Positions 90-64,000 of a stretch of 64,000 nt of DNA are shown here, one piece after another. This DNA is from Escherichia coli (GTDB lineage Bacteria > Pseudomonadota > Gammaproteobacteria > Enterobacterales > Enterobacteriaceae), in the NCBI RefSeq assembly GCF_030013595.1, contig NZ_CP122770.1, one strand, 5' to 3'. A program made the translations under genes and the position numbers. The notes under the pieces are model-generated. The model had not been told where the DNA came from and searched no databases. It worked only from the letters and a program-made list of their open reading frames with translations. Each line of letters opens with the position of its first letter. The first letter of the stretch is position 1.

Positions 90-506
90 TCAGTCATCTC
101 CGAACATATTTTCAGCGTTTCTTCTGGTCTGGTCTTCACCGTCATTTCTCGACAGACTCTGCTCTGTAAGAGGAGTACTGCAATCCACAGACGTATGGAG
201 ACCAGATTGTTTTTCCAGTAATTCAAGCAATTTCTTTTCAACCGAAAAAGCACCTGGTATCACGCTGGAAATCACCTTATTAATATCATCCAGAGTCGTA
301 TTTTCTGTCAGTAACTCCGATATCAGCAAAGGAAGACGTTTATCTATAGCTGCAAACGCCGCACCAGTAACTAACATCGCGCGCATGAAACGTCCCCGCT
401 CCTTCAGTTTTTCATTTGCAATGAGCTCATCTGCTATCTTATCTCCTGTCCGTTCATCCGGGAAAAGTTCAAATGAGCAGCGTCTGGATTTATTTTCATC
501 ACTCAT
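90..506 (-). CDS. parR: ParR/StbB-like centromere-binding adaptor of a type II (ParMR) partition system
   Basis: 138-aa ORF directly downstream of the ParM-like gene with a short start/stop overlap (499-506); N-terminal region follows the ParR(R1)/StbB(R100) pattern (..DKI..ERGR..RA.L..G...ELLT..TT..DI..). Confidence 0.6.
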   Translation of the reverse strand: MSDENKSRRCSFELFPDERTGDKIADELIANEKLKERGRFMRAMLVTGAAFAAIDKRLPLLISELLTENTTLDDINKVISSVIPGAFSVEKKLLELLEKQSGLHTSVDCSTPLTEQSLSRNDGEDQTRRNAENMFGDD

Positions 507-1478
507 TAGTCACACCACCTTTCATTTTTATCATTCCCATGACTAAATCAAACTGCGGGGATGAGCTCAGATAAAAGCGCTCATCAGGAACCTTAGTCAG
601 GTTCTTCACAGCCTCGGCCACAATTTCAGCCCCACCACCAACACACATTACATGTGTATAGTCGGTGAAACGGCTGATGACATCATTAACTCGTTTAATA
701 AGCAACTTCTGCCGTTCATTGATAACATTAATGATAGACTCACGCTGTTCAGCATTATAAATGCGACGGGAAAGGTAGTCAGGTTCATTACGGTGCACAA
801 TGATATTGTCAGCCTGGAATGAGCTCACTCTTGTATTAGCATGTACAGCCATCTGTTCCTTAACCCCGGATGTAATCAGGGACACGCCGATATTTGGATC
901 ACACCAGGTTTTTGTAATCCCTGTCATTTTGCTACGAACATGCGACACATCAAGAGTTGTACCACCGAGATCTACGATCAAAAGGGATTCATCATCCTCA
1001 AGCCCCGCAAGAACACTGAAACCAGCGGGAATACTTTCAGGAAGAACGGAAACACTGCGAATAACAAATGCATCACTCCCCTGCACCCGTACTTCACGCA
1101 TCACATTTTTTTCTTTCTTTCAATGTTTTGCTTATTTTTCTGATTGTTGGCGTCAAGGTATTCAGAGATCGGCAATGTGACGATGACATCAACAGGCTGC
1201 GCTTTCAGGCCGGTCTGCTGTAGCGCATGCTGAATGGCCACAACATTCACATCACTGTACTGATAGCGTGTTTCAGTCGTTACGACAGCATCAGCACTTA
1301 ATGGATCAAATGAAAACTTCTCGCCGTCGATCTCGTAATTAGCCGGGGCAGCATCATCCAGTAAACTAAAAGACCATTCCGGTTTAAAGCTGTTAGGGCT
1401 GATTAACGTTTTCACGTCACCATCCTCCAACCAGGCAAGTTTAATGTTGGTAGAACCATCATCAATAAAGATTTTCAT
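499..1478 (-). pseudogene. parM: ParM/StbA actin-like segregation ATPase, reading frame broken by a -1 shift in an A7 homopolymer
   Basis: N-terminal ORF ([16 protein letters not shown]..., start 1478 after GGAG RBS) ends ..NIERKKKM* at 1101; the C-terminal ORF continues in another frame (REVRVQGSDAF..LPESIPAGF..DLGGTTLD..). Both halves match ParM of R1 in order; adding one A to the run at 1106-1112 restores a roughly 326-aa protein. Confidence 0.75.
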
Positions 1479-17928: not shown

Positions 17929-18005
17929 AAGCTGTCGCTTATGGCGGAGCGATTGTGCCGTGTATTTATACACTGCACAGGGTTGAATCTCTGGTACGGT
18001 TTCAT
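17916..18005 (-). CDS. repY: RepY leader peptide (29 aa), translationally coupled to repZ
   Basis: ATG at 18005, MKPYQRFNPVQCINTRHNRSAISDSLWQV, stop TGA at 17916-17918 overlapping the repZ 5' region, as expected for the IncI1 repY-repZ arrangement. Confidence 0.7.
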   Translation of the reverse strand: MKPYQRFNPVQCINTRHNRSAISDSLWQV

Positions 18006-18019
18006 TATACTTTACCCGT

Positions 18020-18091
18020 ATTCTGTGAGGCCCCCACTATCTTTCGTCGTTCCGCCAAGTTCGTAAGAAAGATAGTGGGGGTTTTCCTTTT
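18020..18091 (+). ncRNA. inc: Inc antisense RNA (replication-control countertranscript) with terminator hairpin
   Basis: Perfect 15-bp stem CCCCCACTATCTTTC / GAAAGATAGTGGGGG (18031-18081) with loop containing CCGCCAA (complement of the rep-mRNA rUUGGCG loop), followed by TTTTCCTTTT, on the strand opposite the rep mRNA leader. Confidence 0.55.
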
Positions 18092-18745: not shown

Positions 18746-19081
18746 TTTGACGCTTTTTTGTATGTTTTTTAAGCTGTTAGTTGACTCGGTGCGTTATACT
18801 AAGTACCCTTTACTGGTCACAGGCAAAACTGTGATCGGGCGTAGGAACCCGCGTAGTCATCGTCGGCGCAGAAGTTAATTTCTTCATTTGGCGTCGTTTT
18901 TTGCCATACCATAAAGACAGGAACTTGTATTTCTTGTCGTCATCTATGGTAGCTCAGGCGGGGCAGGCATTAGCCTGGCCGGTTTCCGATGACGCCGGTA
19001 TTCCTACCCCCGTCTGGGCTATCACCAATGAGCGTAGGAACTCGGTGATAGCGTTTTTAGTTGTCATCGGAGACCTTTGCT

Positions 19082-32230: not shown

Positions 32231-33654
32231 TGAAAAAATATGACCGAGGCTGGGCATCGCTGGAAATTGGCGCGGCTTTATTGATTGTTATGATCATAGT
32301 TGCCTGGGGAGCAGGCATATGGCAGGACTATTTAAAAACCAAAGGTTGGCAGGCTGAAGCTCGTCTTGTCAGCAACTGGGCCAGTGCAGCCCGCTCTTAT
32401 ATAGGGAAAAACTACACAACTCTCCAGGCAAGTAGTACCACATCAACCCCTGCCGTTATCACGACAACCATGCTGAAAAATACCGGCTTTTTGTCCAGCG
32501 GCTTTATTGAGACAAACAGCGAGGGGCAGCGGTTACAGGCATATGTAGTTCGAAACGCCCAAAACCCGGAATTACTACAGGCAATGGTTGTATCCAGTGG
32601 TGGCACCCCTTATCCAGTGAAAGCACTTATCCAGATGGCTAAGGATATTACCACTGGTCTTGGTGGATATATCCAGGACGGCAAAACAGCCACAGGTGCA
32701 TTACGTTCCTGGTCAGTAGCTTTAAGTAATTATGGTGCCAAAAGCGGTAACGGGCATATTGCCGTACTGTTATCGACAGATGAACTTAGTGGTGCAGCAG
32801 AGGACACTGATCGTCTTTACAGATTCCAGGTCAATGGTCGCCCTGACTTAAACAAAATGCACACGGCCATTGATATGGGATCAAATAACCTGAATAACAT
32901 TGGGGCAGTAAATGCCCAGACTGGTAATTTCAGCGGCAATGTGAATGGTGTAAATGGCACTTTCAGCGGTCAGGTAAAAGGCAATAGCGGAAACTTTGAC
33001 GTAAATGTCACCGCTGGCGGTGATATCAGAAGTAATAATGGTTGGTTAATTACTCGTAACAGCAAAGGCTGGCTCAATGAAACTCACGGTGGCGGATTTT
33101 ATATGTCCGACGGATCATGGGTTCGAAGTGTAAACAACAAGGGCATCTATACCGGCGGTCAGGTGAAAGGCGGTACTGTTCGGGCTGATGGTCGCCTTTA
33201 TACTGGTGAATACTTACAACTGGAAAGAACTGCCGTTGCTGGCGCATCATGTTCGCCTAACGGCCTTGTAGGCCGCGATAATACAGGGGCAATACTTTCG
33301 TGCCAATCCGGTACGTGGAAGACTTCTGGTTCGCTCAATGGTTCTTACACAAACTTAGGTTCACATAGAGGTTCATTCTCAGGGCGGAATTCAGGGGGCA
33401 GTACATTGTTTATTTATGCATCTGGAGGTAATGGAGGATCTGCCGGAGGTGCATGTGCAAATACATCCCGACTGCAGGGATATGTTGGTGGGACGCTAAT
33501 TAGCGTGAATGCCAGTAATAACCCTGCATATGGAAAAACAGCCTTTATCAGCTTTGCTGTACCTGCAGGTACTTCCTATCAGATAACATCCTATCCAACA
33601 GAAAATACATCATGTGGTGCCGGGGTATTTTCAGTATTTGGATATCAAACTTAA
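32218..33654 (+). CDS. pilV: PilV, shufflon-variable thin-pilus tip adhesin (current C-terminal segment)
   Basis: Prepilin-like N-terminus; constant region ends at the first sfx repeat (33300-33318, encoding CQSGTW), followed by the variable C-terminus. Confidence 0.9.
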
Positions 33655-35236
33655 TTGAGCGTTACACACGACGCAATACAACCTGTCTTATGCTCGTATT
33701 TGTACCATTTGCGTGAACCTGCTGGGCTCTCAACTACCTGGCAGTAGTGGGCATCCTCTGCGTTGCCCACTCTGGCAATGGCACAGAAGTCGAATTGCCC
33801 CAGATAACCTGTGGTGGAAAGCTGAGTAACTTTGAGTTTTCCACCTATTGTCCCCACGTACCGGATTGGCACGTAGGCCAGTGCCAATCCGGTCGGTGGT
33901 CAGGGGGTAATAAAATTAATTACTCAGCATGTAATTGGTACAAATCATCCGTAGCAATGAATCACTTTATCGGCGGTAAGAGTGGTGGTTCGATCTATTA
34001 CAAGCCGATTCAATGTCCGACTGGATACATTATGACTGGAACACGCATGTACGGTATTGGTGATGGTGTTGATGAGGAACATGTCGATGCCTACTGTTGC
34101 CCCTTTAATTAAGCTCCAGCACCAGGAAGATTGAGGCATGTGACTGATATGGTCCCACCAGACTCATAATTTCCCCAAGCATAATTACTCACATACCAAA
34201 CGTTGTTTTGGTCGGAATATACCTGTTGAAAACCACCAAAGGGTGAGCCATTCAGGTAAGTCCATGAGCAATATGCATGGACCCCGAGCCTTAAATTACG
34301 AGTGTTTTTAGCTATGTTGTAGGTCTGCGTTGTGAATTGAATTTTAGGAGCGCCCCAGGTACCGGATTGGCACGTAGGCCAGCAGCGCCAGCAATTTAAT
34401 CTCAGTTCTGACACGCGACGACATAACTACATTTTCCGGTTAAATCAGCTCTAAATGTCCCTTTATGGAAATTGTATTCATCATAAAAACCACATTTAAC
34501 AATTCGATTTGCATCATAAGTTGCAACTGATCCTGCAAAGTAATTCGGCTTCCAACCTTGAGGGTTTTCTGCATTGCTCACACTCCATGAGCACTGACTG
34601 GCAGAAAACCCTGTTGGCAGCGGTATTTGCTGACCATTTGCTATACGACCAGTTATCACCGTACTACCAGAATTGCTTTTACGCCAAGTACCGGATTGGC
34701 ACTGGCCTACGTGCCAATCCGGTACCTGGAGAAAGGTAGGATCTGGTGAGCTTCAAATTGCTACAGCACAGGCCACAGGTTGGCGCTTTCCTGGAGCAAC
34801 AGCTACCTGTCCAACTGGAAAACGTGTTACAGGTGGCGGCGGAATATGCACCTCACGAACTGGTTACATATGGCTTACCAGGTCATTCCCATCAGCCAAT
34901 AACTCATGGTCGGCTGCGTGCGATACAACCGAAGATCAGAATGGTTCAATAACTGTATATGCCATTTGCCAATAAGCTATTTCAAGCAAGTAATCTTCAT
35001 AAAGTAGGACGAATACTGTGTGTAGTTTTTGGCTTGCCAAGTCATCTCGCCGTTAGAGTCAGGCATGTCAATAGGAACGACTTCTGTTTCTGCCATTTCA
35101 CGCCCGTCAATACGATAGGTGTTAATACACAGTTTAAACCTCCCTAAGACCTGTGTGTTTTTGGGATATAACGTAAATGTTTTTATATTCGTCCATATCG
35201 ACGCTGATGATGATTTCCAGGTACCGGATTGGCACG
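33300..35236. other. Shufflon: multiple-inversion region with seven 19-bp sfx repeats carrying alternative pilV 3' segments
   Basis: 19-bp repeats GTGCCAATCCGGTNNNTGG at 33300(+), 33854(-), 33880(+), 34356(-), 34684(-), 34711(+), 35218(-); every ORF in the region begins in-frame at a repeat (CQSG(T/R)W...) and so represents an alternative PilV C-terminus. Confidence 0.9.
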
Positions 35237-62133: not shown

Positions 62134-62310
62134 ATGAATCTGGTAGACGCCTTTGTCAAAAAAGTAATATCCGGGCCATATGAAGAATATGGAAAATGGT
62201 GGATAGATGTTGAATACATTTCATGGGGTGTTCCCGGGAAAACAAGACTGATGTTTGAGTCAAAGGAGCAGGCACTGGAAGTTAAAGAAGGGTACAAATT
62301 TTTAACGTGA
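62134..62310 (+). CDS. Hypothetical 58-aa protein
   Basis: ATG 62134 preceded by AAAAGGAAAAAACA RBS; MNLVDAFVKKVISGPYEEYGKWWIDVEY... Confidence 0.4.
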   Translation: MNLVDAFVKKVISGPYEEYGKWWIDVEYISWGVPGKTRLMFESKEQALEVKEGYKFLT

Positions 62311-62371
62311 GATCTCTTTTTTGATTAGCAGGATTTTTGACATAGTGTGGGACAAAGCATAGAATTGATTA

Positions 62372-62459
62372 TGTTAGATACAGACTGTCTTTTCCCGCCC
62401 AGAGCAACCAACTCTGTAGCGGAACAGTAAAAAAGCCGACCTCACCAGTCGGTTTTTTT
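62372..62459 (+). ncRNA. Candidate small RNA unit 1 (promoter to intrinsic terminator, about 88 nt)
   Basis: Sigma70-like promoter TTGACA (62337-62342), 17-nt spacer, TAGAAT (62360-62365); hairpin CAGAG-caaccaa-CTCTG; terminator GCCGAC-ctcacca-GTCGG plus T7 (62435-62459). Confidence 0.35.
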
Positions 62460-62618
62460 ACATCTGTTGTTTCTGCAAATCCGCCCCACCATGCCTGTTA
62501 TACCGGGAAGACTCATGTTCTGGTTACCGTCATCACGACAGAAGTGTCGCCAGACAGTGCTAACCTGCGGATTACAAGGGTGGTTGTTATCAAATGAACA
62601 GAACACTATTATAAGAAC

Positions 62619-62705
62619 GTTAGCTGAAAAGAGATTTCCTCCAGTCAGGGCCACCAACTCTGTAACGGAACAGTAAGAAAACCGACCTCATCAGTCGGTT
62701 TTTTT
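62619..62705 (+). ncRNA. Candidate small RNA unit 2 (paralogue of unit 1)
   Basis: Promoter TTGTTA (62584-62589), 17-nt spacer, TATTAT (62607-62612); conserved 3' block CCACCAACTCTGTAACGGAACAGTAA and terminator (62681-62705). Confidence 0.3.
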
Positions 62706-62771
62706 ACATTTATTACTTCTGAGTAACGACAAGCTGTACGTAGCAAGCTCCCTCTGGCGTGGAGGACGTCA

Positions 62772-62915
62772 GCGGGCTACTATAATGTTGTCTAGGCATT
62801 ACAGTAGAGCCCTTGGTTGATTGATAGAACAATCTCCCGGGGCTTTCACAAACGCTTTCAGCTTACAGCCTCAAGCTCCCCACCGCGATTTTGACGACTT
62901 TCGTATTTTGCAACA
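62772..62915 (+). ncRNA. Toxin-less duplicate of the pnd antisense/leader region (putative orphan Sok/PndB-like antisense RNA)
   Basis: About 85 percent identical over roughly 150 bp to 63735-63900, including the promoter-in-hairpin GGGCTACTATAATG...CATTACAGTAGAGCCC; the minus strand has only a truncated 28-codon mok-like ORF and no hok-like ORF. Confidence 0.4.
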
Positions 62916-62990
62916 ATATCAGGTGGTCAGCCTTTCCCGTAAACTTATGGCATGTTGCATTAATCAGGTAGAACAAATTATCATTTTTAG

Positions 62991-63078
62991 CGTCAGTTAT
63001 AGACAGCTCTTTTCTGGTCAGAGTCATCAACTTTGTAGCGTAACAGTAAAAAAGCCGGCCTCACCAGTCGGTTTTTTT
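62991..63078 (+). ncRNA. Candidate small RNA unit 3 (paralogue of units 1 and 2)
   Basis: Promoter TTGCAT (62955-62960), 18-nt spacer, TATCAT (62979-62984); hairpin CAGAG-tcatcaa-CTTTG; terminator GCCGGCctcaccaGTCGG plus T7 (63053-63078). Confidence 0.35.
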
Positions 63079-63233
63079 ACGTCTTTTGTATCTGCAAAAT
63101 CCGCCCCGCCATGCCCGTCACACCGGGGAAACTCATGCTCTGAACCTGAACCAGCCATCTCAACTTTGCCGTCTTCTGAAAAAACTGGCACATTCAGTTC
63201 GATAACTACCCATAAATACAGAGAGAAAATCCG

Positions 63234-63485
63234 ATGTCAGAAAAGTGGAGTAAAGAATTCGACTCTTGCTTTCAGGTGGGGAGCATAGAAGAAATTGCCG
63301 ATGCTCTCGAGAAACGCAGCGGAAGCGAGGAAAACGCGTTAGCCATGCTGGCAATGACAGCCTTCACACTCATGACCCGACGTGGTATCTGCGAAATGCA
63401 GAACGTGGCCCCCGATGGCAAAGGCATTCGGCTGGAGCTAATCGGCTTCAGGGGAAATGAAACAATACCGGATACGCTTCATTGA
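63234..63485 (+). CDS. Hypothetical 83-aa protein
   Basis: ORF followed by hairpin GCGGCGGCAG-aaaacc-CTGCCGCCG (63523-63548) that could also terminate the convergent pnd transcript; RBS weak. Confidence 0.3.
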   Translation: MSEKWSKEFDSCFQVGSIEEIADALEKRSGSEENALAMLAMTAFTLMTRRGICEMQNVAPDGKGIRLELIGFRGNETIPDTLH

Positions 63486-63556
63486 AGAAGAAAGGGCGCA
63501 ATGAGGTCAGCCTTCGCAACAAAGCGGCGGCAGAAAACCTGCCGCCGTGTTGCCCG

Positions 63557-63709
63557 TTAACGTTTAACTTCGTAGGCTAACGTTGCCACAAGCACTGTGT
63601 TTCCCTGCTGGAGCCGGAGTACGCAAAGCGAATCCCTCACCATCCAGACAAAACACAGAATCGTCACACAGATGACGATTAACATCATTAAAAACGTTCG
63701 CTGTGGCAT
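63557..63709 (-). CDS. pndA: PndA, Hok/Gef-family type I toxin (50 aa)
   Basis: MPQRTFLMMLIVICVTILCFVWMVRDSLCVLRLQQGNTVLVATLAYEVKR, matching the Hok family TM helix, SLC motif and LAYE C-terminus; found by manual translation (below the ORF-track cut-off). Confidence 0.9.
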   Translation of the reverse strand: MPQRTFLMMLIVICVTILCFVWMVRDSLCVLRLQQGNTVLVATLAYEVKR

Positions 63710-63767
63710 CATAGCCCCTCCATTGCCTTACGGCGGTTATCGGGCTACTATAATGTTGTCGAAGCAT
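63564..63767 (-). CDS. pndC: PndC, Mok-like overlapping reading frame needed for pndA translation
   Basis: ORF in another frame overlapping nearly all of pndA and ending 7 nt before its stop; start taken at the internal ATG (63767) within the antisense target region; start uncertain (ORF-track ATG at 63848). Confidence 0.45.
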   Translation of the reverse strand: MLRQHYSSPITAVRQWRGYDATANVFNDVNRHLCDDSVFCLDGEGFALRTPAPAGKHSACGNVSLRS

Positions 63768-63815
63768 TACAGTAGAGCCCTTGGTTGATTGATAAAAAAA
63801 TCTCCAGGGGCTTTC
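63748..63815 (+). ncRNA. pndB: PndB/Sok-like antisense RNA with promoter embedded in a hairpin
   Basis: TATAAT at 63748-63753 on the strand opposite pndCA; predicted transcript overlaps the pndC start region and ends at stem CCCTTGG...CCAGGGG followed by CTTTCT. Confidence 0.45.
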
Positions 63816-64000
63816 TGCTGTATACCGTCCACAAAACGCTTTCGGCATACAGCCTCAAGCGCCCGCAGCTATTCTAACGACTTTCGTATCTGCAACAATC
63901 CTTTTATCACACGGCTAATTCCTCTGGTTAGCTCTTATCGCCTGCAAATAAATTTTTAACCTTTCCGTTTGATTTAAATTCCAGAAATGGAGACTTTGTC

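Follow-up and report, generated by a model that had tools for sequence, protein, structure and literature searches.

Can a plasmid keep the regulatory half of a killer cassette after the killer itself has gone, and what would such a half represent? This question is raised by a 64,000-nucleotide stretch of Escherichia coli DNA (contig NZ_CP122770.1 of RefSeq assembly GCF_030013595.1; hereafter the window), in which a leader and antisense RNA module of the pnd type lies ~1 kb from a working pnd killer gene. The surrounding 1.7 kb (62300-64000) are 100% identical to the Shigella sonnei plasmid ColIb-P9 (NC_002122.1), and the element, called the orphan in the following, is located in the IncI1 transfer region between excA and trbA. 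The intact pnd locus on its right is referred to as the resident. An earlier note on this DNA, made from the letters alone, had described a duplicate of the pnd leader without its toxin gene, and had offered two options, a decayed second toxin locus or a retained copy of the antidote only. Our analysis indicates that the orphan is probably a second type I toxin-antitoxin cassette of the pnd type (hok/sok family), of which the toxin half has been lost and the 5′ half remains. A prior description of this pnd remnant was not found in the searchable literature.

A pnd-type leader without its toxin

The orphan (62768-62916) and the pnd leader at 63736-63898 are paralogues. MAFFT alignment and repeat finding place 62768-62847 against 63736-63815 at 91% identity without gaps, and the 75-nt core of the antisense RNA reaches 93.3% identity to the resident (BLASTN, E=3e-26). 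The orphan then carries a 16-nt deletion, the missing stretch being TGCTGTATACCGTCCA of the resident. Beyond this gap, 62850-62880 and 63834-63864 share 90% identity, and a weaker likeness extends to the common TTGTTG -35 box at 62911-62916 and 63893-63898. The Rfam family RF01794 matches the minus strand of the window twice, at the true pnd leader (63707-63864) with 131.7 bits and at the orphan with 67.5 bits (E=8e-13 for the 64-kb window; gathering score 59). Although this family is named 'sok', its model spans the hok-type mRNA from the 5′ end to the toxin AUG. The orphan aligns to model positions 1-157, with an insert of 21 nt in the first hairpin compared to 37 nt in the model, and by this score the 5′ leader of a hok-type mRNA, including the tac end and the target hairpin, is present.

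A pnd-type leader with an antisense RNA module and no toxin, as proposed in the earlier note, is therefore borne out by MAFFT, BLASTN, RF01794 and the TBLASTN searches described below. The orphan is, however, no duplicate of the resident leader, from which it diverges by 7-18% depending on the segment, with no copied flank and another loop allele. Only the right part of the interval first assigned to the element (62640-62915) is pnd-like, whereas 62640-62707 is not related to pnd and belongs to an agrB-like small RNA (sRNA) gene (RF02891, 50.7 bits). The pnd system (pndA/pndB/pndC) of IncI1 and IncB plasmids (R483, R64) shows the same leader architecture, with 82-93% identity over the stretch that begins at the mRNA promoter and ends with the antisense -10 box, the same target hairpin, in which the pndC AUG and a YUNR loop are found, and the same antisense 5′ tail and terminator hairpin. 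Unlike pnd, the orphan has no pndA open reading frame (ORF), no toxin start and no 3′ fold-back inhibitory element (fbi), carries the 16-nt deletion and a degenerate antisense -35 box, and displays CUAG instead of UUCG in its loop.

On the mRNA strand, the leader promoter of the orphan was read by homology with that of the resident (TTGTTG, 16-nt spacer, TAGAAT) and lies under the threshold of the consensus scanner. The leader begins with the tac-like element GGGAGCUUGAGG and retains the outer part of the first stem. The target hairpin that follows holds both the pndC-like AUG (minus strand) and, in its 3′ arm, the antisense -10 box (plus strand), with TACTAT at 62778-62783 and TATAAT at 62781-62786. 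Its loop CCUAGACAA keeps a YUNR motif in the form CUAG, where the resident has UUCG. YUNR is a U-turn motif whose definition reportedly goes back to Franch et al. in 1999. At the antisense -35 position, the family-conserved TTGCCT (AAGGCAA in the mRNA-sense Rfam consensus) is replaced in the orphan by TGGCGT, which lowers the match to the promoter consensus from 4/6 in the resident to 2/6. The consensus scan misses the antisense promoter of orphan and resident alike, and promoter strength is thus a reading of the hexamers, by which both orphan promoters look weaker than the resident ones (TGGCGT vs TTGCCT; CAAAAT vs TAGAAT). That the antisense -10 box is embedded in a hairpin, here of 11 bp, was rightly seen in the earlier note; its statement that this box would drive an antisense RNA is weakened by the loss of the family -35 box. 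The predicted antisense RNA, the 5′ end of which was placed by homology with R1 Sok, has the same tail-plus-hairpin layout as the resident PndB, with a predicted folding energy of -19.1 compared to -24.4 kcal/mol and one extra mismatch in the terminator stem. Of its 60 nt, 55 could base-pair with the resident leader.

Downstream of the leader, the toxin is missing. TBLASTN with PndA and R1 Hok against the whole of ColIb-P9, i.e. the window joined to the remaining 29.6 kb of the plasmid (L009), returned a single Hok-family ORF, pndA at 63709-63560. The earlier note had reckoned with having missed a hok-like ORF at the orphan; none was overlooked. A further sok match was not found in the remaining 29.6 kb. 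A hidden toxin of another family was considered and rejected, as among the ORFs of at least 20 amino acids (aa) in 62300-63100, read on both strands, none resembles Hok, DinQ or DqlB. Likeness to pnd collapses to the left of 62774. The last ~40 positions of the RF01794 model, from the toxin Shine-Dalgarno sequence to the AUG, match the orphan poorly, with the Shine-Dalgarno barely recognisable and the terminal AUG aligned to CUACG; ~30 nt past this degenerate start region, the sequence enters the terminator of an unrelated agrB-like sRNA gene. At this terminator (62678-62705), ~205 nt from the predicted +1, the orphan leader RNA is likely to end. The coupling of the mok/pndC frame to a toxin is gone as well: the target hairpin retains its AUG, yet the frame that starts there is 28 codons long, compared to 94 codons in the resident pndC, and no toxin frame follows. 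The 28-codon mok-like remnant running into a terminator, which the earlier note had described, was recovered as such (ORF 62799 to 62713), ending 11 nt ahead of a terminator-like hairpin on the minus strand (62702-62678). Also absent from the orphan, the transcript of which is predicted to stop at 62702-62678, are the 3′ region of a hok-type mRNA and its fbi, the element that pairs with the 5′ tac element in hok/sok mRNA (PMC9841398). Lacking the toxin ORF, the toxin start codon and the 3′ fold-back, the orphan can therefore not exert post-segregational killing.

Table 1 Features of the orphan, the resident pnd locus and their surroundings (window coordinates).
Feature	Position	Strand	Basis and details
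Orphan hok/pnd-type mRNA leader	62739-62880	-	RF01794; 5′ tac-like end, truncated first hairpin, antisense-target hairpin, degenerate toxin Shine-Dalgarno/start
Predicted orphan leader promoter	62888-62916	-	-35 TTGTTG (62916-62911), 17-nt spacer, -10 CAAAAT (62893-62888), +1 near 62880
Antisense-target hairpin	62777-62807	both	Minimum-free-energy fold of leader RNA; 11-bp stem, 9-nt loop CCUAGACAA
Antisense (PndB-like) promoter region	62755-62786	+	-35 position TGGCGT, 17-nt spacer, -10 TACTAT overlapping perfect TATAAT
Predicted PndB-like antisense RNA, ~60 nt	62790-62849	+	Single-stranded 5′ tail GUCUAGGCAUUACAG (~14 nt), stem-loop 62807-62847, then UUUC
pndC/mok-like ORF remnant, 28 codons (MPRQHYSSPLTSSTPEGACYVQLVVTQK)	62713-62799	-	ORF list; ATG 62799-62797, stop 62715-62713; not hydrophobic
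Bidirectional terminator hairpin	62678-62705	both	Terminator scan; belongs to agrB-like gene 2
Resident intact pnd locus	63557-63898	-	pndA ORF 63557-63712, leader 63707-63864, promoter to 63898; RF01794 131.7 bits
pndA, Hok/Gef family	63557-63712	-	Annotation in NC_002122; trbA comes next
agrB-like antitoxin sRNA gene 1 (class V1)	62374-62461	+	RF02891 59.4 bits; promoter TTGACA-17-TAGAAT at 62337-62365
agrB-like antitoxin sRNA gene 2 (class V2)	62620-62707	+	RF02891 50.7 bits; promoter TTGTTA-17-TATTAT at 62584-62612
agrB-like sRNA gene 3 (class V3), weaker	62993-63080	+	RF02891 37.7 bits, E=3.5e-4; no promoter called
Hypothetical ORF, 94 aa	62026-62310	+	Annotated neighbour (NC_002122.1)
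Hypothetical ORF, 83 aa	63234-63485	+	Annotated neighbour (NC_002122.1)

Distribution, descent and loop alleles

The orphan, scored as at least 80% of 62700-62995, is present in 318 of 1,653 matching plasmid records (~19%), 275 of them at an identity of at least 99%; the other records match solely via their own pnd leader. R64 and pCol1B9_SL1344 each have one pnd locus and a dqlB toxin and no orphan. The comparison with other IncI1 plasmids suggested in the earlier note thus shows that the orphan is not ancestral to IncI1. Because pCol1B9_SL1344 lacks it, transcription-start data sets of strain SL1344 are uninformative for the orphan. A degenerate pnd-leader pattern retrieved 97 metagenome contigs, and the leader sample comprised 131 pnd-type copies from plasmids and metagenomes. 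A PndA-like ORF follows 32 nt downstream in the mRNA sense (18 nt in one case) in 104 of the 131 leaders. The 27 leaders without it comprise 19-20 ColIb-type copies, each of which has the 16-nt deletion and no PndA-like ORF within 500 nt, 7 copies of a second type, and one leader disrupted by IS21 (L066). Copies of the orphan are nearly invariant (7 distinct sequences among 19), and a selection test on them is meaningless since they are too alike.

With respect to its descent, the homology of the orphan to the resident stops on the right exactly at the cassette's own -35 box, and thus no flanking DNA was co-duplicated. The second type is a recurrent toxin-less pnd fragment found in other IncI plasmids (L004:1490-1606 and L010:1760-1880; also in L025, L039, L096, L099 and L100). 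It consists of the Sok-like half only and has the loop CGTTCAC. Counted from the resident pnd leader, it lies 298 nt towards trbA, where it borders a cargo insertion (a 317-aa ORF or ISEcp1). L100 holds both orphan types together with a resident locus. Directly left of CGGGCTAC, the second fragment and the orphan have 19 of 24 nt of private upstream sequence in common, while the resident is unrelated there. Moreover, the homology of the second fragment breaks within the same 16-nt stretch of the long first hairpin that is missing from the orphan. The private upstream sequence common to both orphan types therefore speaks for their descent from a pnd-like lineage distinct from the resident, and this lineage was possibly already toxin-less. 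A search for an intact parent, marked by the 16-nt deletion of the orphan, covered plasmids, metagenomes and GTDB species genomes and found none. In the GTDB species genomes, both the 21-mer spanning the deletion junction and the general pnd-leader pattern gave 0 matches, and distant BLASTN searches with the right half gave matches of at least 99% identity (the orphan group) or of 84% at most (ordinary pnd leaders), with none in between.

The two leaders also differ in the recognition loop, which reads GTCTAGGC in the orphan (CUAG in mRNA sense) and GTCGAAGC in the resident (UUCG), the two motifs differing exactly at the degenerate Y and N positions of YUNR. The pnd target loop, corresponding to the 5′ tail of PndB (63757-63763), occurs in at least six alleles (TGTCTAG, TGTCGAA, TGTTGAG, TGTTCAT, TGTCGAT and CGTTCAC), and CUAG and UUCG are the two commonest. 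Near-identical resident leaders differ mostly at 63760-63763. Over 452 nt, L007 and L003 are distinguished by two loop bases only, and the resident leaders of L026 and L035 depart from that of ColIb-P9 at the same two loop bases and at 63909, outside the locus. Among 59 distinct intact loci, retrieved with a search pattern that fixed the flanking bases, the loop positions 63761 and 63763 are within the six most variable sites of the transcribed region. Furthermore, the replicons with two intact pnd loci carry differing loop alleles in 3 of 3 cases (L008, L102 and L103). Taken together, these comparisons suggest that the loop may set the specificity of the antisense RNA.

The orphan allele TAGG (CUAG in mRNA sense) is the commonest among intact loci (53/104) and also occurs in the intact pnd of pSH14-009_99, pCol1B9_SL1344, an IncK2/Z plasmid and an IncF plasmid. 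In 12 loci, the resident partner of an orphan carries GAAG, as in ColIb-P9 itself, or TGAG; in 2 (L026 and L035) it shares the TAGG of the orphan. Conversely, a metagenomic orphan (L038, ~300-600, reverse strand) departs from the ColIb-P9 orphan solely at 62793 (T>G) and 62795 (G>A), which give it the resident-type GAAG. The allele pattern of L038, L026 and L035 fits occasional gene conversion, by which short sequence tracts appear to have been exchanged between the orphan and the resident pnd leader. As a side observation, the IncF plasmid pN16EC0140-1 (L008) has two intact pnd-type Hok genes (375-527 and 1623-1775) with the alleles TGTCGAT and TGTCTAG, which flank a vapBC type II toxin-antitoxin pair and thus give three addiction modules within 1.5 kb.

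Explanations for the remnant

Between the two options of the earlier note, the decayed second toxin locus fits the anatomy best, as homology fades through a degenerate Shine-Dalgarno and start and then stops, with the toxin ORF and the 3′ fold-back gone. The orphan would then be left over from cassette turnover or replacement between excA and trbA, a stretch of IncI plasmids that is prone to recombination. Such a module could be lost without lethal effect only if the toxin goes and the antidote stays, and with toxin-first loss as the sole viable route, antidote-only remnants are to be expected. If transcribed, the remnant would yield a ~60-nt PndB-like RNA and a ~205-nt non-coding leader RNA, which would pair mostly with each other. 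The sRNA could in addition bind the pndA mRNA of the resident, and would act at most as a weak extra or cross-reactive antidote. The apparently weakened promoters and the patchy distribution fit neutrality. Several points weigh against decay. The antisense gene proper is intact: its TATAAT is perfect, the 5′ tail is uninterrupted, the terminator hairpin folds at -19 kcal/mol and the target loop keeps the YUNR motif. Its core (93% identical to the resident) is better conserved than the flanks. This conservation could reflect selection rather than gene conversion, though conversion with the resident could by itself explain the similarity of the core. The orphan allele CUAG is the commonest elsewhere (53/104) while the resident has UUCG, and a cross-protective antidote would be expected to look like this. 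Finally, the co-oriented run with three agrB-like genes and no dqlB looks more organised than random debris.

The main rival to decay is the view of the orphan as an antidote-only, anti-addiction module, which we regard as possible but rather unlikely. Here, a CUAG-type PndB-like RNA would neutralise pndA mRNAs of competing plasmids (IncI, IncK or IncF), or strengthen protection against the resident pnd, so that ColIb-type plasmids would escape post-segregational killing on displacing an incompatible competitor. The -10 box, tail, hairpin and target loop are all intact, and the orphan allele is that of the intact pnd in several other plasmids (53/104 intact copies), the own pnd of ColIb-P9 being GAAG. 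The plausible role of the loop in specificity (different alleles in 3/3 two-pnd replicons; variable positions 63761 and 63763) is consistent with such a function, as is the parallel next door, where three agrB-like genes without dqlB each fit a different dqlB-leader class. In addition, antitoxin-only constructs neutralise pnd and dqlB addiction experimentally (PMC5330492, PMC12365149). Against this view, the family-conserved antisense -35 box is lost (TGGCGT), the terminator stem has its extra mismatch (-19.1 vs -24.4 kcal/mol), the 2-nt difference in the tail may leave specificity unchanged, orphan and resident do not differ in allele in L026 and L035, and the L038 orphan carries the resident one. 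Moreover, 81% of the matching plasmid records do without the orphan, and its copies are too alike for a test of selection.

The exchange of loop alleles could also be the point of the orphan, which would then be kept as a homology patch or allele reservoir for conversion of the resident loop and for IncI cassette exchange. The L038 orphan with exactly two resident-type substitutions, the L026 and L035 residents that over 452 nt differ from ColIb-P9 at the same two loop bases and 63909, the break of both orphan types within the long first hairpin and the documented high variability of the region (PMC8004404) agree with this. Conversion, however, follows from any repeat and gives no evidence of upkeep for that purpose, and recombination between plasmids with different resident alleles produces the same patterns; we consider such a role improbable. 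The least probable reading, to which we give very little credence, turns to the other strand, where the ~205-nt leader without 3′ fold-back would be constitutively 'open', titrate PndB as a decoy (sponge) and tune pndA activation. The orphan keeps the leader promoter (TTGTTG-17-CAAAAT), a tac-like 5′ end and an intact target hairpin with no fbi partner, and the duplex of resident PndB with the orphan leader is predicted at -91 kcal/mol; in hok/sok, Sok binds only the 3′-processed open form (PMC9841398). On the other hand, the leader -10 box is weakened (CAAAAT), the first hairpin is 16 nt shorter and may fold differently, the orphan's own antisense RNA would occupy the decoy, and less antidote would come at a cost to the plasmid's host. 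We know of no precedent for a decoy in the hok family.

The preferred reading, a cassette that decayed from its toxin half, has counterparts. Decayed hok-family loci are well known, e.g. on the E. coli chromosome, where Pedersen and Gerdes reportedly described in 1999 that the hok/sok loci of K-12 are inactivated by insertion sequence (IS) elements, point mutations and rearrangements. As in these chromosomal loci, killing is lost at the orphan while regulatory RNA parts persist. The IS21-disrupted pnd leader of L066 is a further case of this sort. Unlike them, the orphan has its toxin cleanly deleted, resides on a conjugative plasmid beside an intact paralogue and is almost unchanged in ~19% of the matching records. 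For anti-addiction, chromosomal ccdA-like genes are said to protect against plasmid ccd (Saavedra De Bast and coworkers, 2008). Such modules, like the orphan, comprise an antitoxin gene without its toxin, which could neutralise the related toxin of a competitor; the known cases are type II protein antitoxins with experimental support, whereas the orphan encodes a predicted antisense RNA with a weakened promoter. The concept of orphan antitoxins in 'anti-addiction' has been reviewed (PMC12548467). As a relic, the orphan would chiefly be an annotation hazard, as a second Rfam 'sok' could be miscounted as a second addiction system in plasmid typing or in toxin-antitoxin counts. It would also document the decay of a type I cassette in which the toxin went first and the antidote RNA stayed, and mark the excA-trbA region of IncI plasmids as a turnover site for such cassettes. 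Provided that the remnant and the agrB-like genes beside it are expressed, they would represent natural cases of RNA antidotes retained to defuse the addiction modules of competitors, with a bearing on plasmid-plasmid competition and on antitoxin-only curing as done for pnd and dqlB-agrB (PMC5330492, PMC12365149).

The agrB-like neighbours and the wider plasmid

Of the three agrB-like sRNA genes, two lie to the left of the orphan and one to its right; the first two have good sigma-70 promoters and score above the RF02891 gathering score of 40, with the third just below. AgrB is the antitoxin of DinQ, and the plasmid module dqlB-agrB was recently validated as an addiction module present in 67% of IncI1 plasmids (PMC12365149, PMC12317039). 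A DinQ or DqlB homologue was not found in the whole of ColIb-P9 (best E>1). The 5′ regions of V1, V2 and V3 each match a different dqlB-leader class of other plasmids, with scores of 21, 22 and 24, compared to 20-21, 22-26 and 30-32 for genuine agrB-dqlB pairs of the same plasmid. Elsewhere, in other IncI plasmids, each agrB class is the sole antitoxin beside its dqlB toxin, while the V1-V2-V3 run occurs without dqlB in 14 loci. ColIb-P9 thereby holds four toxin-less type I antitoxin modules, co-oriented and within ~700 bp. A 23-codon ORF (MRSAFLLFRYRV...) is conserved on the minus strand of all three agrB-like repeats (62374-62445, 62620-62691 and 62993-63064); it lies within the terminator hairpins and is probably no gene but a side effect of the repeat.

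The dinQ-agrAB locus of E. coli and the dqlB-agrB loci of plasmids (PMC3567139, PMC12365149, PMC12317039) share with the orphan, through its toxin-less agrB-like neighbours on the same strand, the theme of an antitoxin without toxin. They differ from it in that RNA and toxin family are unrelated and the antitoxin is trans-encoded rather than cis-antisense, and the agrB-like genes are not part of the remnant. Read as a whole, the agrB-like V1 and V2, the PndB-like RNA and V3 could form an 'antidote array', in which each member would fit one toxin class of rival IncI-complex plasmids (three dqlB leader classes and CUAG pnd), an idea that we consider unlikely. Should it be true, ColIb-type plasmids would be immune to the killing of competitors while their own UUCG killer stays effective, amounting to an RNA-level arms race between incompatible plasmids.

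In the wider transfer region, trbA-traY has been called 'a very variable region', and insertions there duplicate intergenic sequence (PMC8004404). Variants of the region with IS100 (L011) and finQ (L002) proved to be simple insertions, uninformative on the origin of the orphan. The hairpin-embedded -10 box had suggested a single-strand promoter of the leading region (Frpo/ssi type); this was rejected given the location of the orphan in the transfer region (excA-trbA), and a sok-like match was not found in the ColIb-P9 leading region (L009).

Two further observations concern other parts of the plasmid. A match to the C4 antisense RNA family (RF01695, 77.5 bits), to which the immunity RNA of phages P1/P7 belongs, lies at 18942-19029 on the plus strand of the window, ~0.9 kb from the repZ pseudoknot (PK-repZ, 17941-18089, minus strand). 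In the leading region of ColIb-P9, the psiA-ardA interval contains a gene for a TnpB-family RNA-guided endonuclease (L009:14583-15758; record 32482-33657), in the place of which pCol1B9_SL1344 has a different ORF.

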